DNA of 20,542 nucleotides from Candidatus Sigynarchaeum calidifontis (GCA_030587475.2 JAUQYZ020000187.1:1-20542), one strand, 5' to 3'. Positions 1 through 17,540 are shown, counted from the stretch's first letter. Made by a program: numbers and translations. The notes: generated by a model not told the origin, from the letters alone.

Positions 1-41
1 ATGAGTTGATTTATTCAAATAGTGCCTAAAAAAACGTGATT

Positions 42-425
42 TTACTCGATGCCGAAGCGCTTGGTAACTTTCACGATCAAGAATATGACGAACGCCACGA
101 TGATGAACGTGATCAGCGCGCTCAAGAAATCCCCGATGAGAAATTCTTGCGTTAGCACGGAAACCTTCAAGCTTGCCAGGTCCGAAAGGCCAGGGATAAG
201 CAGCCCGATCAAGGGCAACAACAAATCCTTGACAAGGGCCTGGACAAGGCCACCAAGGTAGAGCCCGATGATGAAGGCGACCGCGAGCCCCAAGACCTTG
301 TAATTCTTCAAGAAATCCTTAAACTCGAGCATCAAGTTTTTCGGCGGGGATGGCGGTGCCGGGGGCTTCGGTTCGAGCAATTTCTTGATCTGGCGCAACT
401 CTTCGACGATTGCTTCTTCGCTCAT
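42..425 (-). CDS. mscL: Large-conductance mechanosensitive channel MscL family protein (127 aa)
   Basis: S1 helix LMLEFKDFL, TM1 VLGLAVAFIIGLYLGGLVQALVKDLLLPLIG and TM2 IGDFLSALITFIIVAFVIFLIVK match the MscL pattern. Start placed at ATG 425 because AGGTG lies 6 nt upstream; the ORF-track GTG at 434 is part of that RBS. Confidence 0.9.
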   Translation of the reverse strand: MSEEAIVEELRQIKKLLEPKPPAPPSPPKNLMLEFKDFLKNYKVLGLAVAFIIGLYLGGLVQALVKDLLLPLIGLLIPGLSDLASLKVSVLTQEFLIGDFLSALITFIIVAFVIFLIVKVTKRFGIE

Positions 426-5770: not shown

Positions 5771-5969
5771 GTGAATCACGTTGCATCGCGATGGATGCGT
5801 CGTTGGAATGAACCCGCATGCCGGCGCTTATGTGCCTGGATGTCATCCCCGTATCACGCGGCGAAAGGCTATTATGGCCAGACGACGCGGATCAAGCCTA
5901 GCCATTGTCTTTGCATATCATTTGGATCAGTGTTCAAAATTGAGCCGTTCATTAGCATCGATCTTCGAC

Positions 5970-7481
5970 ATGGTCGACAAGAATCCTATCGTCTACGACA
6001 TATTGTTGCCAGATTTCATCCCGAAGATCATGGATCTCCCTCACGGCTATGCATTGCTTATTAAGGGAGACGCGGGCACGGGCAAGTCCACTTTTGCCAT
6101 GGAAATCTGCATGCAATATGCCGACCAGTCCAGCATCATCTTCGTCTCGACGCGAACCAATCTCGAAGATCTTGGAACCCAGTACGCCACGTTCATCCAG
6201 AAAGTGGGAAAAAGCAGCATCAAGGATCTTGCCACGGTCGGAATGTCTGACGAAAGGCTGAAATTGCTCGATGTCGCAACAGAATCATTCCTCAATTTAT
6301 TCCTTGATTTCGAGAAGATCCTCAAGGAGATTTCGGAAAAGAATCGTCTTTTGGTCGAAAAAGGGGGCACGCCACGCAAGACCATCGTCATCATCGATTC
6401 CATCGAGAAGATGATCGAGTCTATTCGGAGAAGGAAGGCCGCGACCACGGATTCGATGGTTTACGAGACGCTGATCGAGTACGCACGGAAATTCTCGTTG
6501 AAGCTATTCATCGTCGCTGAGACCGCCCAAAAAACACCGAACGATTACTTGGTTGATGGAATCATCACTTTATATAGGGACATCCAGTCTGTTCCTGATC
6601 GCATCGTGCGAACCATGGAGATCCAGAAATTACGTAACATGAGCATTGATCAGCAGATGATCGTGTTTACGTTGTATCAAGGTCGTTTCCGCGCGATTCC
6701 AAATCTCAAGCCACGCATAACCATCTTGCCGATCGACCAGCAAGCCCACGCGCTCCACGGCCTCATGGAAGGAAACCAGTTGAGCCAGCTCTTTTTCATC
6801 AACCTGTTCCAAGCGAAGAACCTCTACGTGGACATCGATGCCTTTGGCAGCTCGATGCTGACCATGTGGCAAGTCATATGCACGGTCGTGGCCTTGTTGA
6901 ACAAGATCCCGGTGCTCTTCATCGCGCCAGTGGAGGTGAACCTCCAGCGGTACGTGAAGGCCCTCAGTGGTGCCTTCGGGGAGCAATACATCCGCAAGTA
7001 CTTCAAGATCGGGTTCGTACCCAAGCCACGCGTGGCCGCGGACTGGACGCCCGATTACTTGCTCGTGTCACAATCCAACGATTTCCTCGAGGAAATCCGC
7101 GCCGTGCGAAACGAGCTCCAAACCATGCGGGGGATTTCGAGCAGCAAGGCCGTCCTAGCCATCATCCCGCTCGAGTCGGTCTTCTTAAACTACCAGCACG
7201 AGACATTGCCCACGGTTTTCCAGCACATCCGGGATGGTATCTTCACGGAGGCCGACACGATCTTGTGGACGAACCTATCCCACGAGGAAACCGATCCGCT
7301 TTACGCGCGCTTCGTCGACAGCGTTTTTTCCCGCGTCATATTCGCCATGAAGGGAGTACAAATTGCCAAGACGCAGATCCTCTACTGGATGAAGATGCCT
7401 CGCCCGGCATACACGCTCGTCCCGAAATTCGAGGACAAGCCCTTCAAGCTCCTCAAGCTCGACATCATCCCGCTCATGTAG
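5970..7481 (+). CDS. GvpD/KaiC/RAD55-like RecA-superfamily ATPase (about 503 aa) with a degenerate second domain
   Basis: Walker A GDAGTGKST, Walker B IVIIDS, DYLVDGIITL, RTMEIQKLRN and FTLYQGRF (GvpD/KaiC-type motifs). The C-terminal half has no Walker A. Start placed at MVDKNP (5970); the upstream extension is atypical. Confidence 0.8.
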   Translation: MVDKNPIVYDILLPDFIPKIMDLPHGYALLIKGDAGTGKSTFAMEICMQYADQSSIIFVSTRTNLEDLGTQYATFIQKVGKSSIKDLATVGMSDERLKLLDVATESFLNLFLDFEKILKEISEKNRLLVEKGGTPRKTIVIIDSIEKMIESIRRRKAATTDSMVYETLIEYARKFSLKLFIVAETAQKTPNDYLVDGIITLYRDIQSVPDRIVRTMEIQKLRNMSIDQQMIVFTLYQGRFRAIPNLKPRITILPIDQQAHALHGLMEGNQLSQLFFINLFQAKNLYVDIDAFGSSMLTMWQVICTVVALLNKIPVLFIAPVEVNLQRYVKALSGAFGEQYIRKYFKIGFVPKPRVAADWTPDYLLVSQSNDFLEEIRAVRNELQTMRGISSSKAVLAIIPLESVFLNYQHETLPTVFQHIRDGIFTEADTILWTNLSHEETDPLYARFVDSVFSRVIFAMKGVQIAKTQILYWMKMPRPAYTLVPKFEDKPFKLLKLDIIPLM

Positions 7482-7611: not shown

Positions 7612-9618
7612 ATGTCTGAGAAAAAAAGAAATCCGGTCACCATCGTGCGCTTCTTGCTCGACTCGGCTCGCAAATACGCCGAGCTCGATTGCATGCGCTA
7701 TTTGAAGCGTGGTGAGTACGTCGGTATTACCTGGGAAGAAGTACTCGATGTCACTCGCTTGTTTTCGCTCGGTTTCCAGGCACTCGGTTTGCAAAAGCAC
7801 GGCCGCGTCGCGCTCATGTCCCACACGCGTTACGAGTGGCGGCTGGTCGACTACGGCATCATGTTCGCGGGCGGCACGACCGTCACCATATATCCTTCGC
7901 TCACATCGAGCCAGGTCGAATACATCATCAACGACTCGCAGAGCGGCATCATCGTGGTCGATAACGAGTCGAATCTCAAGAAAGCACTGAAAGCCAAGCC
8001 CAACTGTCCCGGTTTAAAGGCAATTATCATGATCGAGCCGGTGCCAGACGAGGCAAAAACACAAGGCGTGTTGTCACTCGACGACCTCGTCGCCCGCGGC
8101 GAGGACCTCGCGAGCCGGTCGCATCCGGTTCCCGTCCCCATGCAGAAGGAGATGACGCTTCTCAAGCGGCGGATAGCGAAGGGCAAGGGGGAGAAGGACT
8201 TGGACGGCATGCTGGCGCGCATGCATCATCTCGACCAGGAAATCGCGGGCGCGACTGGCGATCCATTCATCACCCGGTACCTCAGCGTGGAAGAAAAGGA
8301 CATCGCCACGATCGTGTACACGTCAGGCACGACGGGTGTACCGAAAGGGGCGCTCCTCACCCACTACAACATGGCATACAACTCGGTACAGACCGCGAAG
8401 GCCATCCCGATACAACAGCACGACATCACCTTGTCGTTTTTACCCCTTTCCCACGTGCTCGAGCGGCAAGTGAGCCAGTTCCTCGCGACCTATATCGGCT
8501 TCACGGTCGCCTTCGCTCGCGACACGGACTCGGTCGTCGAAAACCTCGACCAGATCAAGCCCACCTTCATCACGAGCGTGCCGCGCATCTACGAGAAGCT
8601 CTACAACCGCATCATGGCCGACGTCGCCGATAGCGAGACCAAGAAGAAGATCTTCGACCACGCGACCGACTGGGGCTGGGAATACCAGACCGCGGTGCAA
8701 AAGGGGGAAGAAGTGTCGCTGATGCTTGCACTCAAGAACACGCTCGCGGACAAGCTCGTGTTCGGCAAGATACGCGACATTCTCGGCGGCCGGCTCCGGT
8801 TCATGTTCTCCGGCGGCGCGGCACTCAACCCCGTGCTCGCCAAGTTTTTTTTCGCCGCCGGCTTCAAGATCATGGAGGGTTACGGGCTCACGGAAACGTC
8901 GCCCGTCCTCACGGTGAATCGCATCGACTCCATCCACATCGGCACGGTCGGCAAGCCAATTCCCGACACCGAAGTCAAGATCGCCGCGGACGGCGAGATC
9001 ATTTGCAAAGGACCCCAGGTGTTCCCGGGCTACTGGAACAAGCCGCAAGAGACCGCCGACGCGTTCGACGCCGAGGGCTGGTACCACACGGGCGACCTCG
9101 GCAAATTCACTGATGAAGGCGACCTCGTCATCACGGGACGCAAGAAGATGATCATCGTCTTGCGCACTGGCAAGAAAGTATCGCCCGTGGTCGTTGAAGA
9201 CGCAATCACGCTTGATCGCCACGTGGCACATGCGTGCGTGCTCGGGGACGATATGAAGTATCTAATCGCCATCATCGAGCCGAACTTCGAGTACCTCGCC
9301 GAGTGGCTGGAAAAGAATGGCCTCACCAAGCTCAAGCCCGACGATTTCAAGGTCTACAAGGGCATGACGAAGGATGAATACCAGGCCGTCATTGAGCGCC
9401 GGCGGAAGGTCATCGAGATGCCGGAAGTGATCGCCTTTTACGACCAGATCCTCAAGCAAACGCAAGCCAACCTGAGCGAGTTCGAACAAGTCAAGCGGTT
9501 CACCCTCGTGCCCGAGGAATGGAACGAGTACAACGTTCTCACGCCCAGCTTGAAGATCAAGCGCAAGAGCATCCTGGAAACGTACAAGAACGAGATCGCG
9601 AAGACCTACGTGGACTAG
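7612..9618 (+). CDS. Long-chain fatty-acid--CoA ligase (AMP-dependent synthetase, FadD15/Faa1-like, 668 aa)
   Basis: YTSGTTGVPKG, FLPLSHVLER, SVPRIYEK, SGGAAL, EGYGLTE, WYHTGDLG and LTPSLKIKR motifs. Confidence 0.93.
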   Translation: MSEKKRNPVTIVRFLLDSARKYAELDCMRYLKRGEYVGITWEEVLDVTRLFSLGFQALGLQKHGRVALMSHTRYEWRLVDYGIMFAGGTTVTIYPSLTSSQVEYIINDSQSGIIVVDNESNLKKALKAKPNCPGLKAIIMIEPVPDEAKTQGVLSLDDLVARGEDLASRSHPVPVPMQKEMTLLKRRIAKGKGEKDLDGMLARMHHLDQEIAGATGDPFITRYLSVEEKDIATIVYTSGTTGVPKGALLTHYNMAYNSVQTAKAIPIQQHDITLSFLPLSHVLERQVSQFLATYIGFTVAFARDTDSVVENLDQIKPTFITSVPRIYEKLYNRIMADVADSETKKKIFDHATDWGWEYQTAVQKGEEVSLMLALKNTLADKLVFGKIRDILGGRLRFMFSGGAALNPVLAKFFFAAGFKIMEGYGLTETSPVLTVNRIDSIHIGTVGKPIPDTEVKIAADGEIICKGPQVFPGYWNKPQETADAFDAEGWYHTGDLGKFTDEGDLVITGRKKMIIVLRTGKKVSPVVVEDAITLDRHVAHACVLGDDMKYLIAIIEPNFEYLAEWLEKNGLTKLKPDDFKVYKGMTKDEYQAVIERRRKVIEMPEVIAFYDQILKQTQANLSEFEQVKRFTLVPEEWNEYNVLTPSLKIKRKSILETYKNEIAKTYVD

Positions 9619-9634
9619 GCGGGGTGCTGGATTC

Positions 9635-12562
9635 ATGGCGAATACCAATCCAATCGACGAGCAATACTGGCGCGAGATCTGGGTGCTCCATGACAGCGAG
9701 AAGCGGATCGGGGTGCACCTCAAGCGGGAGCACGGCTTGCAGCTCTTCAAGATCTTGTTGCTCGCGGCGGTGCTGCTACTTTTCTTCTCGGTGCCGTTGA
9801 TTCCCGGGGCGCTCGTGGACGTGGACCTCGGGGGCAAGACCTTGACCCCATGCGAGGCGCTCACGTTCGAGGCATTCCGGCTCGATCCCGACATCTTCAA
9901 AGATATCACGACCGTGCGATCCGTCGCCGTCGACATGTATTATCACTTGTGCCAGTTCATTTACAAGTGGCTTGGATATGGCGGGGCGGCGTGCCTCGTT
10001 TACTGGGTGCTCTTCATCGACCCTTACAAGAAACTCCGTGGACGAAGGGGCTACCGCGAATATATCCAAGAGGTGGTCTACGAGAACCCGAAAAGTGCCA
10101 TGGTGTTCCTCAAGAAAACCTTGTCGGACAACAAGTACCGCTGGGCAGGCTTCTTCTACACGTGGTGCGTGGGCTGCGCACTGTGCTTGCTATTCGAGGC
10201 GCCGCAATGGACGTGGATCGCCCAGCACCAGTATTACTGGTTCAGCGCATCGCCATCGATCGTGCCGGTCGCGCTGATCCTTCTCTTGTTCATCAACGTG
10301 GGATTCGGCCTGGTCATCGGCCTGGCGAGGCCAAGGAGCCGATCGGGCTCTCGTGTCAAGACCGCGGCGCTCGCGGCCATCGCGGCATGCCTGTTTTTCA
10401 CGATAATCGTCTCCATTTTGAACGCAGGTCTACTTCGCGATTACGTGGTGAACTGGAACGCGTATTCCATCGGTTATCCGGAGGACAAGGTGGTCAAGGA
10501 CTACTTTATCAATTACACCATGCTCTTCTGGGCCCTCGGGATCGCGTTCTCGGCGCTCGGCGCGTGGCTGATGCCGCTCTGCTGCACGACCTACCAGAAC
10601 GCGCGGTTTCGTCGCATCATCGACAACACGTATCACGCGGTGACCGAGCGGCACGAGAACGCGTGGGAATACGCCCCGATACGAAAGAAACACGAGAAGG
10701 AGCGGAAACTCCGTGCATTCGTCCGGCGATCCTCGGCTTTCGAGTTGGCGTTCTTTTTCGGGCTCACGCTGCTCATGTTGTGGGGCTTTTACTTTTACTG
10801 GGGCCAGCTCGCCGGGAACGACACGATGATGTACATCGGCATCGGCGTGATGGCTTTCGAGGTCATCTGGGCGCTCTTCTTGTCGCCCGTGGTGCACCAC
10901 AAGATCGAGAAAAACATCACCTACCAGGGAAAGGGCGTCGCGTGGGTGCTGACCGAGGACAGGGGCATCGGATCGTGGCAGAAGTACTGGAAGGCAGTCG
11001 GCTGGTTCGAGAGCAAGGGCATCCCGGACGACCAGATCGAGCGGAAAAAGGCGCTCGACATCACGAAGCACATGGTCGTGTTCTTCGTCATCTTTGCGGT
11101 CTGCCTTCTCGGCAGCTCCAGCATCCTTAGCGAAATCCTGGCTGATGCACTCGGCGGGGGAGCATACAACTTTCAAACGACATTCGCCGTGGTTTTCTTG
11201 ATCGTCTCGATCTTTTATCTCATCGAGTTCGGCAGGCTGCGAAAGAACATCAAGCTTCGCAAGCGGGGCTTCGAACAAAAACGCGGGTACAGCGCGATAC
11301 TCGTTATCGCGATGGTTTCGGCTGTCACGGGCATCCTGGCTTGCGCGGTGCTGGCGCTCGATGGAATCGAGGTCGCATTCAATAACACGGATGCGTTGAT
11401 CAACGATGCGATCTACCCGCTCGCCCTCGTCATCTTGTTATTAATACTATACTATACGCTCGTCTGGCCACTTTGTATCCGGTTCAGCCCCGTCGTGTCT
11501 GACAGGAAATTCTGGAAAAATTGGAAACGAAAGCATGTCGACCGGTTACCCCCGGAAGAAAGAGCGCGCATCGTCCCTATCCGAAGATTTGTCTTTGTTC
11601 TCAGCCTCATTTTCGCGCTGTGGGGCTGCGGGGAGGGGATGGGCGAGGCCGCCGTGTACAACGCCGTGGCCCGCGCCATAGGTGTTCATCCAGGCTTGGT
11701 CACGAGCGCCATGGCGATTCTCTACATGGCCATCGCCCCGCTGCTACTCGTTTACAGCGTCAGGATCCTCAAGTTTAACGACCCGAAGGATCCCGATCGC
11801 GGCAAGAAGCGCATGTATGCCGCTCTCTTCGAGCTGTTCGCGGCGGGGCTCGTTATCGGGATCGCCTTCATTTTCGGGACGACGATCGATCGCAGTGCCA
11901 AGCCCACCGATCCCTTGTTCGGCTGGACGCACGGCGATGCCATCGCGTTCATGCTCTCCCCGTCGAACGCCTTGCAAGCGATCATATCATTTGTTGTTTG
12001 TGCATTGCTCTTGCTCGGCGTGGTCTATGGCCTCGTCCTCGTGTGCTATCCCATCTTCGTGCGGATGGACGACTTGTTCAAATCCATCCCGGATCTGCTC
12101 AAGATCATGTTTTTCGGCGTGGTGTTGCTCAGCGTCTGGAACTACCTGTGCGAGTGGTTGTTCACGACGCCGAGACTGCACTGGTCGTGGACGGCCGGGT
12201 TGGATCCGGTCAAGATGCGGAACGATTTCCTCGTCGGAAACTTCCTTGCCGGGGTCGGAGGATATTTTTTCTGGGGCTGGGTACAAGAGCTCCTCTTCCT
12301 GGGATATTTCTGTTGGCTACTTTACAAGATCCAGCCAAACAGGTGGATAAACGCCGCGATCTCCGGACTCTTGTTCTGCATGTTCCATTGGGATAACATC
12401 GCTTTAATGGTCGGTACAGGCATTGGTGGCTTCATGTGGGCACTCTGGTTTGGCGAGCGCCGCAACCTATTCATCTACGCGTGGCAGCACGGCTGGAACG
12501 GCACGCTGGTGAGCAAGCTCATCCCCATGTCGATGACCGTCGGCCCCGGCGCGCACGATTGA
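9635..12562 (+). CDS. Large polytopic membrane protein (975 aa) with a C-terminal CPBP (CAAX protease/Abi)-like domain, variant motifs
   Basis: Many hydrophobic segments. C-terminal WVQELLFLG / LFCMFH / RNLF...QHGWNG map onto the CPBP motifs EExxxR, FxxxH and HxxxN. GGGGTG RBS; starts 16 nt after the ligase stop. Confidence 0.8.
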   Translation: MANTNPIDEQYWREIWVLHDSEKRIGVHLKREHGLQLFKILLLAAVLLLFFSVPLIPGALVDVDLGGKTLTPCEALTFEAFRLDPDIFKDITTVRSVAVDMYYHLCQFIYKWLGYGGAACLVYWVLFIDPYKKLRGRRGYREYIQEVVYENPKSAMVFLKKTLSDNKYRWAGFFYTWCVGCALCLLFEAPQWTWIAQHQYYWFSASPSIVPVALILLLFINVGFGLVIGLARPRSRSGSRVKTAALAAIAACLFFTIIVSILNAGLLRDYVVNWNAYSIGYPEDKVVKDYFINYTMLFWALGIAFSALGAWLMPLCCTTYQNARFRRIIDNTYHAVTERHENAWEYAPIRKKHEKERKLRAFVRRSSAFELAFFFGLTLLMLWGFYFYWGQLAGNDTMMYIGIGVMAFEVIWALFLSPVVHHKIEKNITYQGKGVAWVLTEDRGIGSWQKYWKAVGWFESKGIPDDQIERKKALDITKHMVVFFVIFAVCLLGSSSILSEILADALGGGAYNFQTTFAVVFLIVSIFYLIEFGRLRKNIKLRKRGFEQKRGYSAILVIAMVSAVTGILACAVLALDGIEVAFNNTDALINDAIYPLALVILLLILYYTLVWPLCIRFSPVVSDRKFWKNWKRKHVDRLPPEERARIVPIRRFVFVLSLIFALWGCGEGMGEAAVYNAVARAIGVHPGLVTSAMAILYMAIAPLLLVYSVRILKFNDPKDPDRGKKRMYAALFELFAAGLVIGIAFIFGTTIDRSAKPTDPLFGWTHGDAIAFMLSPSNALQAIISFVVCALLLLGVVYGLVLVCYPIFVRMDDLFKSIPDLLKIMFFGVVLLSVWNYLCEWLFTTPRLHWSWTAGLDPVKMRNDFLVGNFLAGVGGYFFWGWVQELLFLGYFCWLLYKIQPNRWINAAISGLLFCMFHWDNIALMVGTGIGGFMWALWFGERRNLFIYAWQHGWNGTLVSKLIPMSMTVGPGAHD

Positions 12563-12583
12563 GAAAAAGGATGGTGAACGAAA

Positions 12584-14950
12584 ATGACACTCGAACTCAA
12601 GCAAATCGAACAGAACCTCGAAGACGAGCTCGTCGACGAAATTGGCCTCAAGGATTTCGAGGTCGATCGCATCAAGGAGCGATCGCGCCGCTATCTCGAC
12701 TCTCGGACACTCGAGACCGACCTCGCCCGAAGCAGTCGCATCATGGACATGTTTCTCGTCGGGCTCTCGGTATTTGTCTTCATCATGTGCGTGGCCTTCT
12801 GCTGGCTCATCCTCGGCATCTACCAGTTCGTGCTCGTGTACGTGGGCACGCAAGTCTTGATCCTCGCGTGGCGGTTCGTCCTCTCGCCCTTGCGGCACCA
12901 TGGCTTCACGTCGAAAGAATTGCTCGTCAAGTACCGCTGCTACCTCGCGCAAGAGAAGCAAATGAAGGCGTTTCTCAAGGACAACTCGCATGCGATCCTC
13001 GCCGTCCTCTACTTCATGGTCGATGTAATGGTGTTCTTGTCGTTTTTCGACATGCCGCGCATGCTCGTCCACTTGAACAACATGATCTATAACAGGGGTG
13101 AATTCCCGCTGTCGCTCGTGACCAGCATCGCCCCGGCGCTCGTGATCATCGGCTTCGTCGTGAACGTGCTCGGCGCCGCCATCATCGCCAAGTACCAGCG
13201 GAAGGAACGGGGCACGGGCCGGGTTATCGAGAACAAGAAGGCGACCATCTTGCTATCTGTCGCGGTCGGGGCATCCATCGCCGTGTTATTTGCCATCGGC
13301 ATCGCGTTTTCTACCGAGTTCACGAAATTCAACGAACCCGCTCCAGGCATCAACAATTTCCTCTACTACTTCGATCCGAATCAACCGATGTTCCGCGCTC
13401 GCGTGGTCATCTACACCTACTACTTTCTCGTCTACGCGGGGGCGGCCGTGCTCGCGCTGCTCATCATCTGCGGCTTGTCCGTCATGGAAACCACGATCAT
13501 GCTCGGCAAGCTCAACGCGCACTGGGATCGCAGCCCGCCCGTCGAGCGGAACTGGGAGTTCAAGGTCACCGCCCTCCGCCACGAGGAGAACAGGAAACTC
13601 AAGATCCGCGCCCGGAAATTTTCCCTCGGCGAGCTCCTCGTTCTATGCTTGCTCGCCATCGTTGCCATGTGGGTCTGCCTCAAGTGGGGGGGCGAGATCA
13701 TGGACATCGAGTGGATGAACTACGTCGGCTATGGGTTGCTCGGCATCATCGTGATCTGGGGGTTTATCATTTCGCCCATCTACCATGCCAAGAACGACGG
13801 CCAGTTCCACTACCCGACATCACGACAGAACGTCGCCTACGCGATGTTCGACGAGCGGGGGCTAGGCTCGTTTAAATATTACTACAAGAAAGTCTTCAAC
13901 AAGCAGCGCAGCCTCGTCGCGTGGACGCTGTATTTCTTGCTCATGCTCACGGCCGTGTTCAATTTCGACGAGATCGGCCTTTCCATGATGAACTGGAAAG
14001 CCATGTTCGAAAACCCGGCAAAAGTACCCGGGGGCGTGATCGTCGATTTCGTGGAGATGATCTCGGGCACGCCCCACCCATACGAGACCGCCTTGAGCGT
14101 CGTGCTCTTTGCAACGGCATTGAGCCTCGTCGCGTTCGTCGGTGCCCTGGGAAAGAAGAAAGAGGACTTTGGCGGCAGCGGGGCATGGTGCGTGTTCTTC
14201 AAGGTCGTCGTCGGCCTCATCGTGCTCGGTTGCTTTTTCTGGGTCACGAAAATCCCGCAGGTGACAAGCGTGGTCAATCTCCTCTCGATGGATTTCTTCT
14301 TGTCGCTCGGCTTGGTCGTCATGTTCTTTGTCGTGGCCATGATCGTCATTTTATTCGTCGTGATGCCGTGGATCATCAAGTTCGACAACCTCGGCGCGAC
14401 GAAACGCAAGATTATCGAGATACTCGTCATGACCGTCGTCCTCCTCGGGATCATCATCGGCATCTTCCATTTCGTGCTGCCGATGACGGACACGAGCGGG
14501 GCGAACGTGATCTACGGGTACCCGTGGGATATCGGCCCTGAAAACGAAGTGAAGGCGAAGCTAGATGCATTCGACCTCGGCGTGTTTCTCATGGAATGGT
14601 GCGGCCGGTACATCGCCTGGGGCGGCGTGCAGCAGTTCCTCTTCATGTCGATCTTCCTCACGCTCTGGAAAAAGATATTCCCGCGATCGAAGGGATACAT
14701 CGTCGCGGTCGGCACGTCGTGCATATTCGGGGTAATCCACGCGATAGATTGGCCGTTGATGATCTTCACGTTTATAGCCGGCTTATTCTGGGCGAAAGGA
14801 TGGCACGCCGAGTATTACGACCCGAAGACCGGCCGCGTCGTGCACGGCAACAACTTGTTCCTCTGGGGTTTCGTTCATGGCTTCGGCGGCTCGCTGCTCG
14901 GCATGTTGGCACCGTTCTCGCTCGGCGTTGGCCCCTTCAACATGGGCTGA
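12584..14950 (+). CDS. Large polytopic membrane protein (788 aa), paralog of the upstream gene, with a C-terminal CPBP-like domain carrying a QQ motif
   Basis: GVQQFLFMS / IFGVIH / NNLF...VHGFGG. Shares W..SP..H and (E/D)RG.GS motifs and a C-terminal P.S..VGP with 9635..12562. GGTGA RBS; 21-nt gap. Confidence 0.8.
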   Translation: MTLELKQIEQNLEDELVDEIGLKDFEVDRIKERSRRYLDSRTLETDLARSSRIMDMFLVGLSVFVFIMCVAFCWLILGIYQFVLVYVGTQVLILAWRFVLSPLRHHGFTSKELLVKYRCYLAQEKQMKAFLKDNSHAILAVLYFMVDVMVFLSFFDMPRMLVHLNNMIYNRGEFPLSLVTSIAPALVIIGFVVNVLGAAIIAKYQRKERGTGRVIENKKATILLSVAVGASIAVLFAIGIAFSTEFTKFNEPAPGINNFLYYFDPNQPMFRARVVIYTYYFLVYAGAAVLALLIICGLSVMETTIMLGKLNAHWDRSPPVERNWEFKVTALRHEENRKLKIRARKFSLGELLVLCLLAIVAMWVCLKWGGEIMDIEWMNYVGYGLLGIIVIWGFIISPIYHAKNDGQFHYPTSRQNVAYAMFDERGLGSFKYYYKKVFNKQRSLVAWTLYFLLMLTAVFNFDEIGLSMMNWKAMFENPAKVPGGVIVDFVEMISGTPHPYETALSVVLFATALSLVAFVGALGKKKEDFGGSGAWCVFFKVVVGLIVLGCFFWVTKIPQVTSVVNLLSMDFFLSLGLVVMFFVVAMIVILFVVMPWIIKFDNLGATKRKIIEILVMTVVLLGIIIGIFHFVLPMTDTSGANVIYGYPWDIGPENEVKAKLDAFDLGVFLMEWCGRYIAWGGVQQFLFMSIFLTLWKKIFPRSKGYIVAVGTSCIFGVIHAIDWPLMIFTFIAGLFWAKGWHAEYYDPKTGRVVHGNNLFLWGFVHGFGGSLLGMLAPFSLGVGPFNMG

Positions 14951-15054: not shown

Positions 15055-16521
15055 ATGCAAAAGTTGGACTTGCTTTTCATCCATCCCCCGCGAAACTACG
15101 AATACTTGAAGGCGAACCTCAAGAAACGTAGTTCTTACATGCTCATCCCCATGGGGCTCGTCGGATTGGCTGACCTGGCCGAGCGTGAAGGGTTTTCGGC
15201 CAAGATCTTGAATTACCCGCTCGAAAAAGCGCTGGATAATAACTTTTCATTACGATCGTACTTGACCAACCATGACCCGGGAATCGTCGGTGTTGACCTC
15301 CACTGGGTCGTCCACAGCGCTGGGGCGATCGACACGCTCATGTACGTCAAGAAGCACTTCCCGAGCGCGTTCACGCTGCTCGGCGGCTATTCCGCGACGC
15401 TGTATGCCAGGGAAATCATGGACACTTGTGATTTCATCGATGGCATCATCCAGGGGGATGCAGAAGTCCCGGTCATCCAGCTGCTAAAACACAAGAAATC
15501 TTTGGAAAGGATACCGAACTTGATCTATCGAGACAATGGTAGAGTGAAGGACAACGGCATAACATACGTCGCAAAGGAGATCAACTCGCTGAATTTCGCC
15601 AGGGTCAAGTTCATCGAGCACTGGAAGGAATACATAGAGACGAGCTTCAAGGCCATCCGGAACCCGTTCTCGATCGAGGTGGCGCGTGGCTGCCCGTTCA
15701 ACTGCATCTTCTGCGGCGGCTCCAGGTACTGCTTGCACCGCATGGCCAAGCGTGACGAAGTGATCTTCAGGTCGCCGGGCAGGGTGGTCGACGACATCAA
15801 GGAATTTCTCGACGTTAGCCCGGTCAAGACCATCTTCTACGGCCACGGGGTATACCCCACGACGGAATCCTACTTCATGGCGATCAACGAGTTGATCCGG
15901 GCCGAGAAGATCGATGTCCAGGCGGAGCTGGAAGCGTGGCGGCTCCCCGTGAGCAAGAAATTCATCGAGGACTTCGCGAAGACCTACGACCGGACCCGGT
16001 CGCTTTTCTGGTTCAGCGTCCGGAACTTTTCTTCGACATACAGGAAGAAATTCACGACGATGTTTGGAAAATTCGACGATTCGCTCGGGTTCTCCGATCA
16101 CCAGTTAGATGCGTTTATCCGCGATTGCCAAGACAACGGGCTAATAAACCTCTTGTTCTGGGACATCGGGTATCCCCACGAGACCCCGTCCGACGCGTTC
16201 CGGAACTACGCCAAGGCCGTGAAATTCATTTTACACCACGTGGGGAAGAAAGACCGGGTCGGGATAATAACGGAACCCATGCTCGTGTCGCCAGGGTGCC
16301 CCGCGGACTTGTTCGACACGAAGATGGGGTTGCAAGTGCGGAACAAGACTTTCAAGGAGCAACTCGCACTGAACCGGAACACCGTGATGCGGATCTCACC
16401 ATGGGACGTCGTTTCCGACTACAGGACGACGCACTTCTCGACGACCGCGCTCTATCTCATCAACAAGATCACGTGGTTCACCTACGGGTTCACGTTCCTT
16501 CCAATGTTCTTTTTTCAGTAA
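15055..16521 (+). CDS. Cobalamin-binding radical SAM protein (488 aa), resembling the Ta0216-type family
   Basis: N-terminal B12-binding Rossmann domain (LLFIHPP, PMGL, GVDLHW, LGGYSAT, GDAE) and the CxxxCxxC motif RGCPFNCIFCGG. Confidence 0.9.
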   Translation: MQKLDLLFIHPPRNYEYLKANLKKRSSYMLIPMGLVGLADLAEREGFSAKILNYPLEKALDNNFSLRSYLTNHDPGIVGVDLHWVVHSAGAIDTLMYVKKHFPSAFTLLGGYSATLYAREIMDTCDFIDGIIQGDAEVPVIQLLKHKKSLERIPNLIYRDNGRVKDNGITYVAKEINSLNFARVKFIEHWKEYIETSFKAIRNPFSIEVARGCPFNCIFCGGSRYCLHRMAKRDEVIFRSPGRVVDDIKEFLDVSPVKTIFYGHGVYPTTESYFMAINELIRAEKIDVQAELEAWRLPVSKKFIEDFAKTYDRTRSLFWFSVRNFSSTYRKKFTTMFGKFDDSLGFSDHQLDAFIRDCQDNGLINLLFWDIGYPHETPSDAFRNYAKAVKFILHHVGKKDRVGIITEPMLVSPGCPADLFDTKMGLQVRNKTFKEQLALNRNTVMRISPWDVVSDYRTTHFSTTALYLINKITWFTYGFTFLPMFFFQ

Positions 16522-16697: not shown

Positions 16698-17540
16698 ATG
16701 ACGCACATGGAAACCGCAAAGCGCATCATGATCGCTGGATTCGTGTCGGTCGCTGTGTTCTCGGCCACCATGCTCATCATCGGCATAGTACGATGGTCTA
16801 CAGCCGGTTTTGGAATCCCGGAATTGGCTTCTGACCTGAACTATATTGGCTACATCGTCCTCATCTCCATGGCATATTTAACGGCGGTGCACTTGTGGTC
16901 GAGGGTGCCATCCCTCCCGGAAGGCCTCCCGATCAGGACCTTGTTCAAGATGATGGGGATCACGTTCCTGGTCATCGGGTTCATCTTCATCTACACGATG
17001 ATGGACACGCTGCTCAGGTGGGCAGGTTATCCCGCATTGTCGGACATGATCGACGTCGTCCCGGACATCAAGTTTAACCTGTTTGGCTTGACGAATGTAA
17101 CCATGCCGTTGAGCAGCATCGTGATGTTCTCGATCATCATGGTAGGCGTGGCGATCTTCATATTCCCGCTCGAGCGCTTCGTGAAAAACCGCCGGCCGTG
17201 GTTTACGATATCGATGGTGAGTAGCCTTTGCGTGATGCCATTCATGGTCCTCTTCATGGAAAATGACATCGCAATGATGATCGTCACCGTGGGCATCGTG
17301 CTCATCGTGCTCATCAATTTCATCTTCATGTTCTACCTTTACATATCGCTTGCCGTGAAGAGCGCGGGCAAGATGCGCATCGCCTCGGCGCTGGTTGCCA
17401 TTGGCTTGTTTTCGATGATATTCGTGTGGGTCGTTGGGCTCGGGTTGTTCGAAAAGGTTCTGCAATCCATCTTGCAATTCCTTATCGGCTTGACGAGTAT
17501 TATCCTGTTCAATGGAGGTTTCCGGATCATGCGGCCGTGA
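16698..17540 (+). CDS. Hypothetical polytopic membrane protein (about 8 TM, 280 aa)
   Basis: Repeated hydrophobic helices of about 20 aa separated by short basic loops. Alternative start at ATG 16707. Confidence 0.8.
   Translation: MTHMETAKRIMIAGFVSVAVFSATMLIIGIVRWSTAGFGIPELASDLNYIGYIVLISMAYLTAVHLWSRVPSLPEGLPIRTLFKMMGITFLVIGFIFIYTMMDTLLRWAGYPALSDMIDVVPDIKFNLFGLTNVTMPLSSIVMFSIIMVGVAIFIFPLERFVKNRRPWFTISMVSSLCVMPFMVLFMENDIAMMIVTVGIVLIVLINFIFMFYLYISLAVKSAGKMRIASALVAIGLFSMIFVWVVGLGLFEKVLQSILQFLIGLTSIILFNGGFRIMRP

Follow-up and report, generated by a model that had tools for sequence, protein, structure and literature searches.

The contig of Candidatus Sigynarchaeum calidifontis analyzed here (GCA_030587475.2 JAUQYZ020000187.1:1-20542; 20,542 nucleotides (nt), hereafter the window) carries, at positions 7612-14950, three same-strand open reading frames (ORFs) that fill this interval and encode an acyl-CoA ligase and two giant membrane proteins of the CPBP superfamily, which we call memA and memB. 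Our results give good support to the view that this locus specifies a ligase-coupled membrane pair without a Glu-protease site, and comparative sequence data equally support the view that neither protein can use the canonical Glu-His dyad of the family. From the same comparisons, we read both proteins as members of a distinct, conserved branch of CPBP proteins, here termed QQ-type, in which the polar site has been remodelled and is under selection, with no decay. More tentatively, sequences and structural models lead us to favor, with reservations, a role for the non-proteolytic pair in fatty-acyl or lipid handling, fed by the ligase. Our literature search found no paper describing a ligase-memA-memB module.

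A remodelled polar site shared by a QQ-type CPBP branch

According to the literature on the CAAX protease Rce1 (PMC13692083, citing the Rce1 structure), its catalytic dyad consists of the first Glu of EExxxR (motif 1) and the His of motif 2, its oxyanion hole is formed by the motif-3 His and Asn, and the second Glu is salt-bridged to the motif-1 Arg. Measured against this scheme, memA and memB retain the FxxxH of motif 2 (F914/H918 and F715/H719, respectively) and depart from the other two motifs. First, Gln occupies the position of the general-base Glu in every memA and memB ortholog. Second, the HxxxN/D of motif 3 is absent, with the Asn at +3 in memA, no Asn in memB, and a conserved Asn at -8 instead. 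Specifically, the altered site of memA (12284..12499, + strand) comprises Q884-E885 (QELLFL from 12284), F914xxxH918 (H918 at 12386), N944, and H952-G-W-N955 (H952 of HGWNG at 12488), while that of memB (14630..14878, +) comprises Q683-Q684 (QQFLFM from 14630), F715xxxH719 (H719 at 14738), N757, and H765-G-F-G-G (H765 of HGFGG at 14876). A preliminary description of this DNA had listed the motif coordinates, the retention of both His residues, and the replacement of EExxxR by QELLFL or QQFLFM and of HxxxN by HGWNG or HGFGG, all of which proved exact. Five other PF02517 paralogs of the host genome keep the canonical motifs, with EExxFRG and FxxxH in 5/5 and HxxxN/D in 4/5, and the Gln substitution is therefore confined to memA and memB among these genes.

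The same description had noted the loss of the Glu in these giants. The Glu is indeed absent, but its absence is not peculiar to them, as the accompanying signature extends down to proteins of ~200 amino acids (aa), at least one of which is bacterial. A profile made from an 18-sequence alignment (A2) and searched against 1.84 billion representative proteins returned 698 matches (representative clusters) at E <= 1e-3, with 29 of these at E <= 1e-30. Among the best 150 of the 698, which were aligned to the profile, the catalytic-Glu column held Gln in all but two aligned sequences (QQ, 117; QE, 28; Q with another residue, 10). Conservation counted among 133 members outside the giant clades (memB numbering) was near-invariant in the motif-1 region (Y676, 96%; W679, 91%; Q683, 98%), at F715 and H719 (both 100%), L725 (97%), G733 (95%), N757 and H765 (both 95%), and at the C-terminal G783 (100%) and P784 (97%); after the second His, the family consensus is G-x-x-G rather than x-x-x-N/D. 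The resulting signature, a Glu in the first transmembrane helix (TM1)...S-x-x-x-H...Y-x-x-W-G-x-x-Q-Q/E...F-x-x-x-H...N-x7-H-G...V-G-P C-terminus, is carried in its entirety by both memA and memB. Many QQ-type relatives are normal-sized proteins of 200-260 aa that score above the PF02517 threshold; the relatives include a bacterial sequence (Rhodohalobacter) and Lokiarchaeia, and their automatic name is "CPBP family glutamic-type intramembrane protease".

The TM1 Glu (memB E350, memA E370) recurs, with a Trp 13 residues on, among both the mid-size (20/23) and the short (30/37) QQ-type relatives. In memA, it falls in the TM1-TM2 hairpin of the CPBP fold (10742..10897, +; alignment A1), where the invariant E370 (10742) and H421 (10895) are homologous to E350 and H401 of memB, both inside the structurally aligned CPBP range. 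The corresponding cytoplasm-side residues of memB, E350 (13631), H401 (13784), and R425-G-x-G-S (13856), span 13631..13858 (+) and are invariant in A2. In some QQ-type relatives (P0134 and P0153), FG-GAP beta-propeller repeats form a C-terminal fusion, suggestive of a binding role outside the cytoplasm in the lineages concerned.

A conserved ligase-memA-memB locus

The first gene of the locus (7612..9618, +; ATG 7612, stop 9618) encodes an AMP-forming acyl-CoA ligase of the ACSL/FadD type, 668 aa long, which matches PF00501 (E 2.8e-72) and, with its ACSL-type C-terminal domain, PF23562 (E 1.1e-10), and has an intact adenylation core (YTSGTTGVPKG, GYGLTE, and TGD). Judged by these features, it is an ANL adenylate-forming enzyme of the long-chain acyl-CoA synthetase type; its best NCBIfam model, FadD11, scores under the equivalog cut-off. 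A longer form starting at TTG 7510 is not supported, as ortholog alignments begin at residues 1-6 of the ATG form. The ligase also has a charged insertion of ~55 aa just ahead of YTSGTTG (residues ~190-253, window 8180-8370), which may be a contact element toward a partner or the membrane.

A spacer of 16 nt (9619..9634, +), with a Shine-Dalgarno (SD)-like GGGGTG (9621-9626), separates the ligase from memA (9635..12562, +; ATG 9635), a 975-aa polytopic membrane protein that is a QE-type member of the CPBP superfamily. A second spacer of 21 nt (12563..12583, +), with an SD-like GGATGGTGA (12569-12577), separates memA from memB (12584..14950, +; ATG 12584), its 788-aa, QQ-type paralog with ~16 transmembrane (TM) helices. 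Both SD-like strings are of the GGTG type and lie 6-8 nt 5' of the respective ATG, in agreement with the spacing and the separate ribosome-binding sites first described for the two downstream genes. A scan of the window for bacterial promoters and terminators returned counts at shuffle level and, the models being bacterial, is uninformative for an archaeal host. That host is a Sigynarchaeum-like Asgard archaeon, with the closest named ortholog in Candidatus Sigynarchaeum springense (88%) and an assembly completeness of 89%.

Absence of the ligase linkage from relatives had been named at the outset as grounds for abandoning the idea of a module; our results revealed instead that the linkage is conserved in relatives down to memA identities of 37-50%. 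All full loci that we recovered have the order ligase-memA-memB, at five divergence levels including the window. The trio occurs at 88-94% identity on two metagenome contigs (L026 and L027), in a genome of the same genus (G001; memA 79%), at locus L028 (memA 55%, memB 57%, ligase 79%), and in a genome of a different family (G019; memA 37-50%, memB 40%, ligase 67%). In G001, the trio is spread across small contigs, and it is interrupted by contig ends in L026 and on two G001 contigs; a genome-contig scan recovered the G001 contig alone. Further, ligase orthologs of at least 60% identity (60-94%) are confined to genomes (G001, G003, and G019) and contigs with giant genes, and genomes with only short relatives have ligase paralogs at 40-46%. 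A unit of three genes, inherited together and probably transcribed together, is well supported.

The module is rare. We found giant forms in 4 of the 154 genomes of the order, and a 301-genome sample of the phylum yielded no further case. In G003, a genome of the same family, the search recovered no memA, the memB homolog is limited to residues 263-787 (without the first ~260), the ligase homolog is limited to residues 1-348, and the two lie ~1.2 Mb apart (G003:C1, ~2012044-2013660, L017, and 3243749-3244789, L039, respectively). G003 may thus hold a module that is decaying jointly.

CPBP fold and predicted membrane topology

The assignment of memA and memB to the CPBP fold, made from sequence profiles and predicted structures, is secure because SpdC and Rce1 lead the structural matches of two independent models and because memA exceeds the Pfam gathering threshold. 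A profile check against PF02517 (clan Peptidase_U) placed residues 870-955 of memA above the cut-off (E 1.1e-5, 26.1 bits; cut-off 22.4), and the memA ortholog of G019 reached 31.2 bits; memB by itself had no Pfam match. AlphaFold2 modelled memB with a mean predicted local distance difference test (pLDDT) score of 89.3 and a predicted template modelling (pTM) score of 0.63 (60-row alignment), and residues 640-975 of memA with a pLDDT of 94.7 and a pTM of 0.90 (85-row alignment). The models were compared with 48,161 representative chains by exhaustive VIA-align search, in which Z values below ~13 are possible among helical bundles. For memB, SpdC ranked first (6u0o_A; Z 12.0, 197 residues aligned, root-mean-square deviation 4.3) and Rce1 second (4cad_C; Z 10.4, 204 aligned), with the third row at Z 7.6. 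The C-terminal memA model retrieved the same two proteins in the same order (SpdC, Z 11.7, 147 aligned; Rce1, Z 7.8, 140 aligned).

A CPBP-fold domain had originally been placed at the C-terminal end of each protein. Both PF02517 and the SpdC and Rce1 matches uphold the fold; the restriction to the end does not stand. In memB, residues 342-779 (13607..14920, +) contain a complete CPBP fold with insertions, in that residues 342..779 align with 6..226 of SpdC and residues 346..779 with 8..241 of Rce1. As these ranges take in nearly the full length of both known proteins, the CPBP unit spans ~440 residues with insertions, beyond the last 100 residues.

Other searches added little. Foldseek found no PDB match at E <= 1e-3 for either model (with memA, SpdC came no higher than rank 42), and comparison with the ESM Atlas gave nothing informative (scores <= 0.83, TM score <= 0.18). 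Matches to presenilin (with a 300-residue gap), YidC, and G-protein-coupled receptors in a profile search of PDB sequences (A4) were dismissed as hydrophobic bias. The preliminary description had likened the pair to APH-1. The family-wide Gln, however, suggests an altered site that still functions rather than a relic of the APH-1 kind, and the closest structures are SpdC and then Rce1, so that our data do not reveal a specific relationship to APH-1. Specifically, APH-1 was not recovered by the profile search of PDB sequences, no PF06105 match was found at E <= 0.1, and APH-1 was not in the top 50 VIA-align rows of either model, although such absences are compatible with a distant superfamily kinship.

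The topology of memB was approached through a positive-inside count over the ~16 TM helices of the AlphaFold2 model. Loops designated "in" held 48 Lys/Arg per 235 residues and those designated "out" held 10 per 170, a bias from which memB is predicted to have both its N and C termini in the cytoplasm. The charge bias and the model helices together place E325, E350, H401, and the R425-G-x-G-S loop on the cytoplasmic face. Counted along the model helices from their cytoplasmic ends, Q683, H719, and H765 are at a depth of 10-14 residues, that is, at mid-membrane. The active site of Rce1 (4CAD) is located at the apex of a cavity that opens to the cytosol, and the depth of the memB site agrees with this by helix position.

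Two expanded paralogs

The description of memA and memB as giant paralogous membrane proteins was borne out. The two proteins (975 and 788 aa) are joined by two collinear BLASTP segments (E 1e-14 and 2e-13) and are collinear along their entire common core of ~790 aa, at ~22% identity in A2. A maximum-likelihood tree built from the C-terminal region gave the memA clade and the memB clade 100/100 support each, and therefore the duplication is older than the lineages bearing the pair. Both clades are nested within relatives of 350-600 aa, some labelled Lokiarchaeia by source. The giant family is small (~30 sequences), and memA and memB adjoin each other wherever the pair occurs.

The giants have two further architectural features. 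First, memA carries an insertion of ~185 aa with four TM helices (residues 456-640; 11000..11554, +; alignment A1), limited to memA orthologs of 950-975 aa in the Sigynarchaeum-like clade and lacking from those of 774-808 aa. Second, the N-terminal ~330 aa are, on profile comparison, a partial duplication of the first TM helices of the core unit. This is seen in the N-terminal extension of memB (residues 85-301; 12836..13486, +), which aligned by hhalign with residues 379-594 over 185 columns that include the SPxxH hairpin (probability 87%, E 3.8e-6), a score that TM composition bias may inflate. No NCBIfam model matched memA or memB.

Neighbouring genes

A B12-radical S-adenosylmethionine (SAM) gene (15055-16521, +), closest to TIGR04190 (the Ta0216 family) and under its cut-off, was considered as a further part of the module and rejected, as only the window and G001 have it after memB and it is missing at the equivalent place in L028 and G019. 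In L028, memB is followed directly by pfkB, and in G019 by AIR-synthase-like and RadA genes. Immediately 5' of the ligase, the window encodes a KaiC/GvpD-like P-loop ATPase (566 aa; 5781-7481, +) that is syntenic in L026/L027 and L028. In G002, a KaiC/GvpD-like gene is also found ~1 kb from a gene for a short (384-aa) QQ-type CPBP protein without a ligase. The association could reflect shared ancestry or a functional link. Elsewhere in the window are a gene for a full-length Hsp90/HtpG homolog (785 aa; 562-2919, -; PF00183, E 3e-115), here in an Asgard genome, and a 280-aa ORF (16698-17540, +) between the radical SAM gene and a pfkB kinase gene, with no Pfam or NCBIfam match.

Possible roles of the module

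How a ligase and two such membrane proteins might work together can be hypothesized from the features above. In the scheme that we tentatively favor, the cytoplasmic ACSL/FadD-type ligase would convert a carboxylic acid, fatty or otherwise, into its activated form (acyl-AMP or acyl-CoA) and would be expressed together with memA and memB, expanded QQ-type members of the CPBP/Rce1-like proteins. These would pair in the membrane, each offering a mid-membrane polar cavity that would be accessible from the cytoplasm and inherited from the lipid-binding cavity of Rce1. The cavity would then accept the product of the ligase, an acyl chain, and hand it on, either by transfer to a membrane acceptor or through coupled uptake and activation, and neither protein would carry out Glu-dependent peptide hydrolysis. 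The heteromer of memA and memB, the orientation of the cavity, the acyl substrate, and the transfer chemistry are all elements that we infer.

Several observations weigh against this scheme. The short and mid-size QQ-type relatives (380-520 aa; G002, G023, G027, G198, and G305) have neither a ligase nearby nor any conserved neighbor, and the QQ-type proteins may therefore have started out with a function other than acyl handling. Nor was a fusion of a ligase (AMP-binding) domain to a CPBP domain found among the longer QQ-type relatives, which have FG-GAP or unannotated extensions only, or within the size range of 536-1707 aa. As for the ligase itself, it is a generic enzyme of the long-chain type with paralogs elsewhere in the host genome.

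The alternative that survives best, though we think it clearly less probable than acyl handling, is that memA and memB are a non-catalytic scaffold that merely tethers, orients, or regulates the ligase, as SpdC, LnsB, Abx1/CflP, and APH-1 do for their partners. Such a role would fit the loss of the catalytic Glu and the position of the non-catalytic SpdC as top structural match of both models, and several non-catalytic CPBP proteins are documented, with no CPBP motif residue of LnsB being essential (PMC13559823, PMC13692083). However, the Gln, His, Asn, and His of the site and the TM1 Glu are near-invariant in both paralogs and in remote QQ-type members, as would be expected of a working site, whereas in known scaffolds these motifs decay variably.

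A working site could also be that of a hydrolase or protease that has been retained with a relocated base, for example the TM1 Glu (memA E370/memB E350), or with a lone His, the ligase supplying a lipid modification for its substrate or acting on that substrate. This is unlikely in our estimation, though not much less probable than the scaffold. The TM1 Glu, with its associated Trp, is found in 50 of 60 QQ-type relatives, both His residues are kept, and the entire fold is intact in models of high confidence. Yet the helix positions put E350 just ~4 residues from the boundary on the cytoplasmic side, as opposed to the 10-14 residues of depth of Q683, H719, and H765, the oxyanion Asn of motif 3 is displaced in memA and gone in memB (HGFGG), and no substrate gene, such as one for a CAAX or sorting-signal protein, is linked to the locus.

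More ambitious, and in our view rather improbable in its full extent, is an extension of the acyl-handling scheme in which QQ-type CPBP proteins as a whole would be a new class of intramembrane transferases that carry out acyl chemistry in place of hydrolysis, with a His/His/Asn/Gln site built on the Rce1 cavity, and the Asgard heterodimer would be a ligase-fed member that acylates a membrane lipid or protein. Least probable of all is that the linkage has no functional meaning, with the ligase serving ordinary fatty-acid catabolism beside an unrelated pair (for example, in envelope maintenance or signalling) in a narrow clade where adjacency persists: all loci do come from one order, the module is rare there, and the syntenic KaiC-like (upstream) and pfkB (downstream) genes within the family indicate partly shared ancestry, but the trio persists where the flanks have changed (G019, with its AIR-synthase-like and RadA genes, and L028, without the radical SAM gene), its short spacers leave no promoter-like gap, and the ligase orthologs follow the giant genes phyletically.

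Implications

Few uncharacterised membrane proteins of prokaryotes are as abundant as the CPBP/Abi proteins, and there is growing evidence that many of the latter are not proteases. In this context, the near-invariant polar site of a coherent Glu-to-Gln branch speaks for a change of chemistry rather than for decay. The ATP-dependent fatty-acid ligase is so far the sole conserved genomic partner of the QQ-type branch, and thereby offers a concrete hypothesis for its function. If the broader transferase reading is true, it would place fatty-acyl membrane chemistry in an archaeon expected to have isoprenoid ether lipids. Given the Asgard host, any fatty-acyl modification of lipids or proteins would also be relevant to the debated transition from archaeal to eukaryotic membranes.

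Relation to known systems

Functional coupling between an ACSL/FadD-type ligase and membrane proteins, which supply the acyl chain or take it over, is familiar from vectorial acylation, in which FadL/FATP works with FadD/ACSL, and from Aas/LplT-type systems. Unlike in those systems, where memA and memB have no homologs among the membrane parts, the coupling proposed here is read from gene linkage alone. The relationship to Rce1 and the type II CAAX prenyl endopeptidases (PF02517; MmRce1, PDB 4CAD) is one of a shared multi-TM fold, with the motif-2 FxxxH and the motif-3 His in equivalent helices. In contrast to Rce1, memA and memB have Gln for the first Glu, no motif-1 Arg, the motif-3 Asn absent from +4 (memB) or at +3 (memA), and a new Asn at -8, and they are 3-4 times larger, with insertions, an N-terminal partial duplication, a paralog pair, and a ligase linkage.

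CPBP proteins that work without proteolysis, among them LnsB and Abx1/CflP, are already known (PMC7387801, PMC13559823, PMC13692083). APH-1, too, is presented in literature cited in PMC7387801 as a CPBP-derived, non-proteolytic membrane subunit that retains two His residues, but no presenilin-like partner accompanies memA and memB. The best structural match, SpdC/LyrA of Staphylococcus aureus (PDB 6U0O), is a non-catalytic CPBP protein without the catalytic residues that acts through its partner, the glucosaminidase SagB; identity to memA and memB is 12-14%, and the partner of SpdC is a peptidoglycan hydrolase, whereas here it is an adenylate-forming ligase. A functional precedent is LnsB of the LnsAB system, a CPBP-fold protein with diverged motifs that is needed, with a second enzyme, for lipid acyl transfer in lipoprotein N-acylation (PMC7387801, PMC13559823). 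That second enzyme is an extracellular NlpC/P60 Cys-His acyltransferase with phosphatidylglycerol as donor, the two genes are non-contiguous, and the motif residues of LnsB are non-essential (PMC7387801, PMC13559823). By description, memA and memB are set apart from LnsB by a cytoplasmic, ATP-dependent ligase as partner and by strongly conserved motif residues. The conceptual novelty implied in the preliminary description must nevertheless be reduced, as LnsB already provides a non-catalytic CPBP partner in lipid acylation (PMC7387801, PMC13559823) and, together with SpdC-SagB, Abx1/CflP, and APH-1, forms a series of precedents. What does appear to be new is the recognition of the QQ-type branch, the architecture of a giant, partly duplicated paralog pair, and the link of this pair to a ligase.

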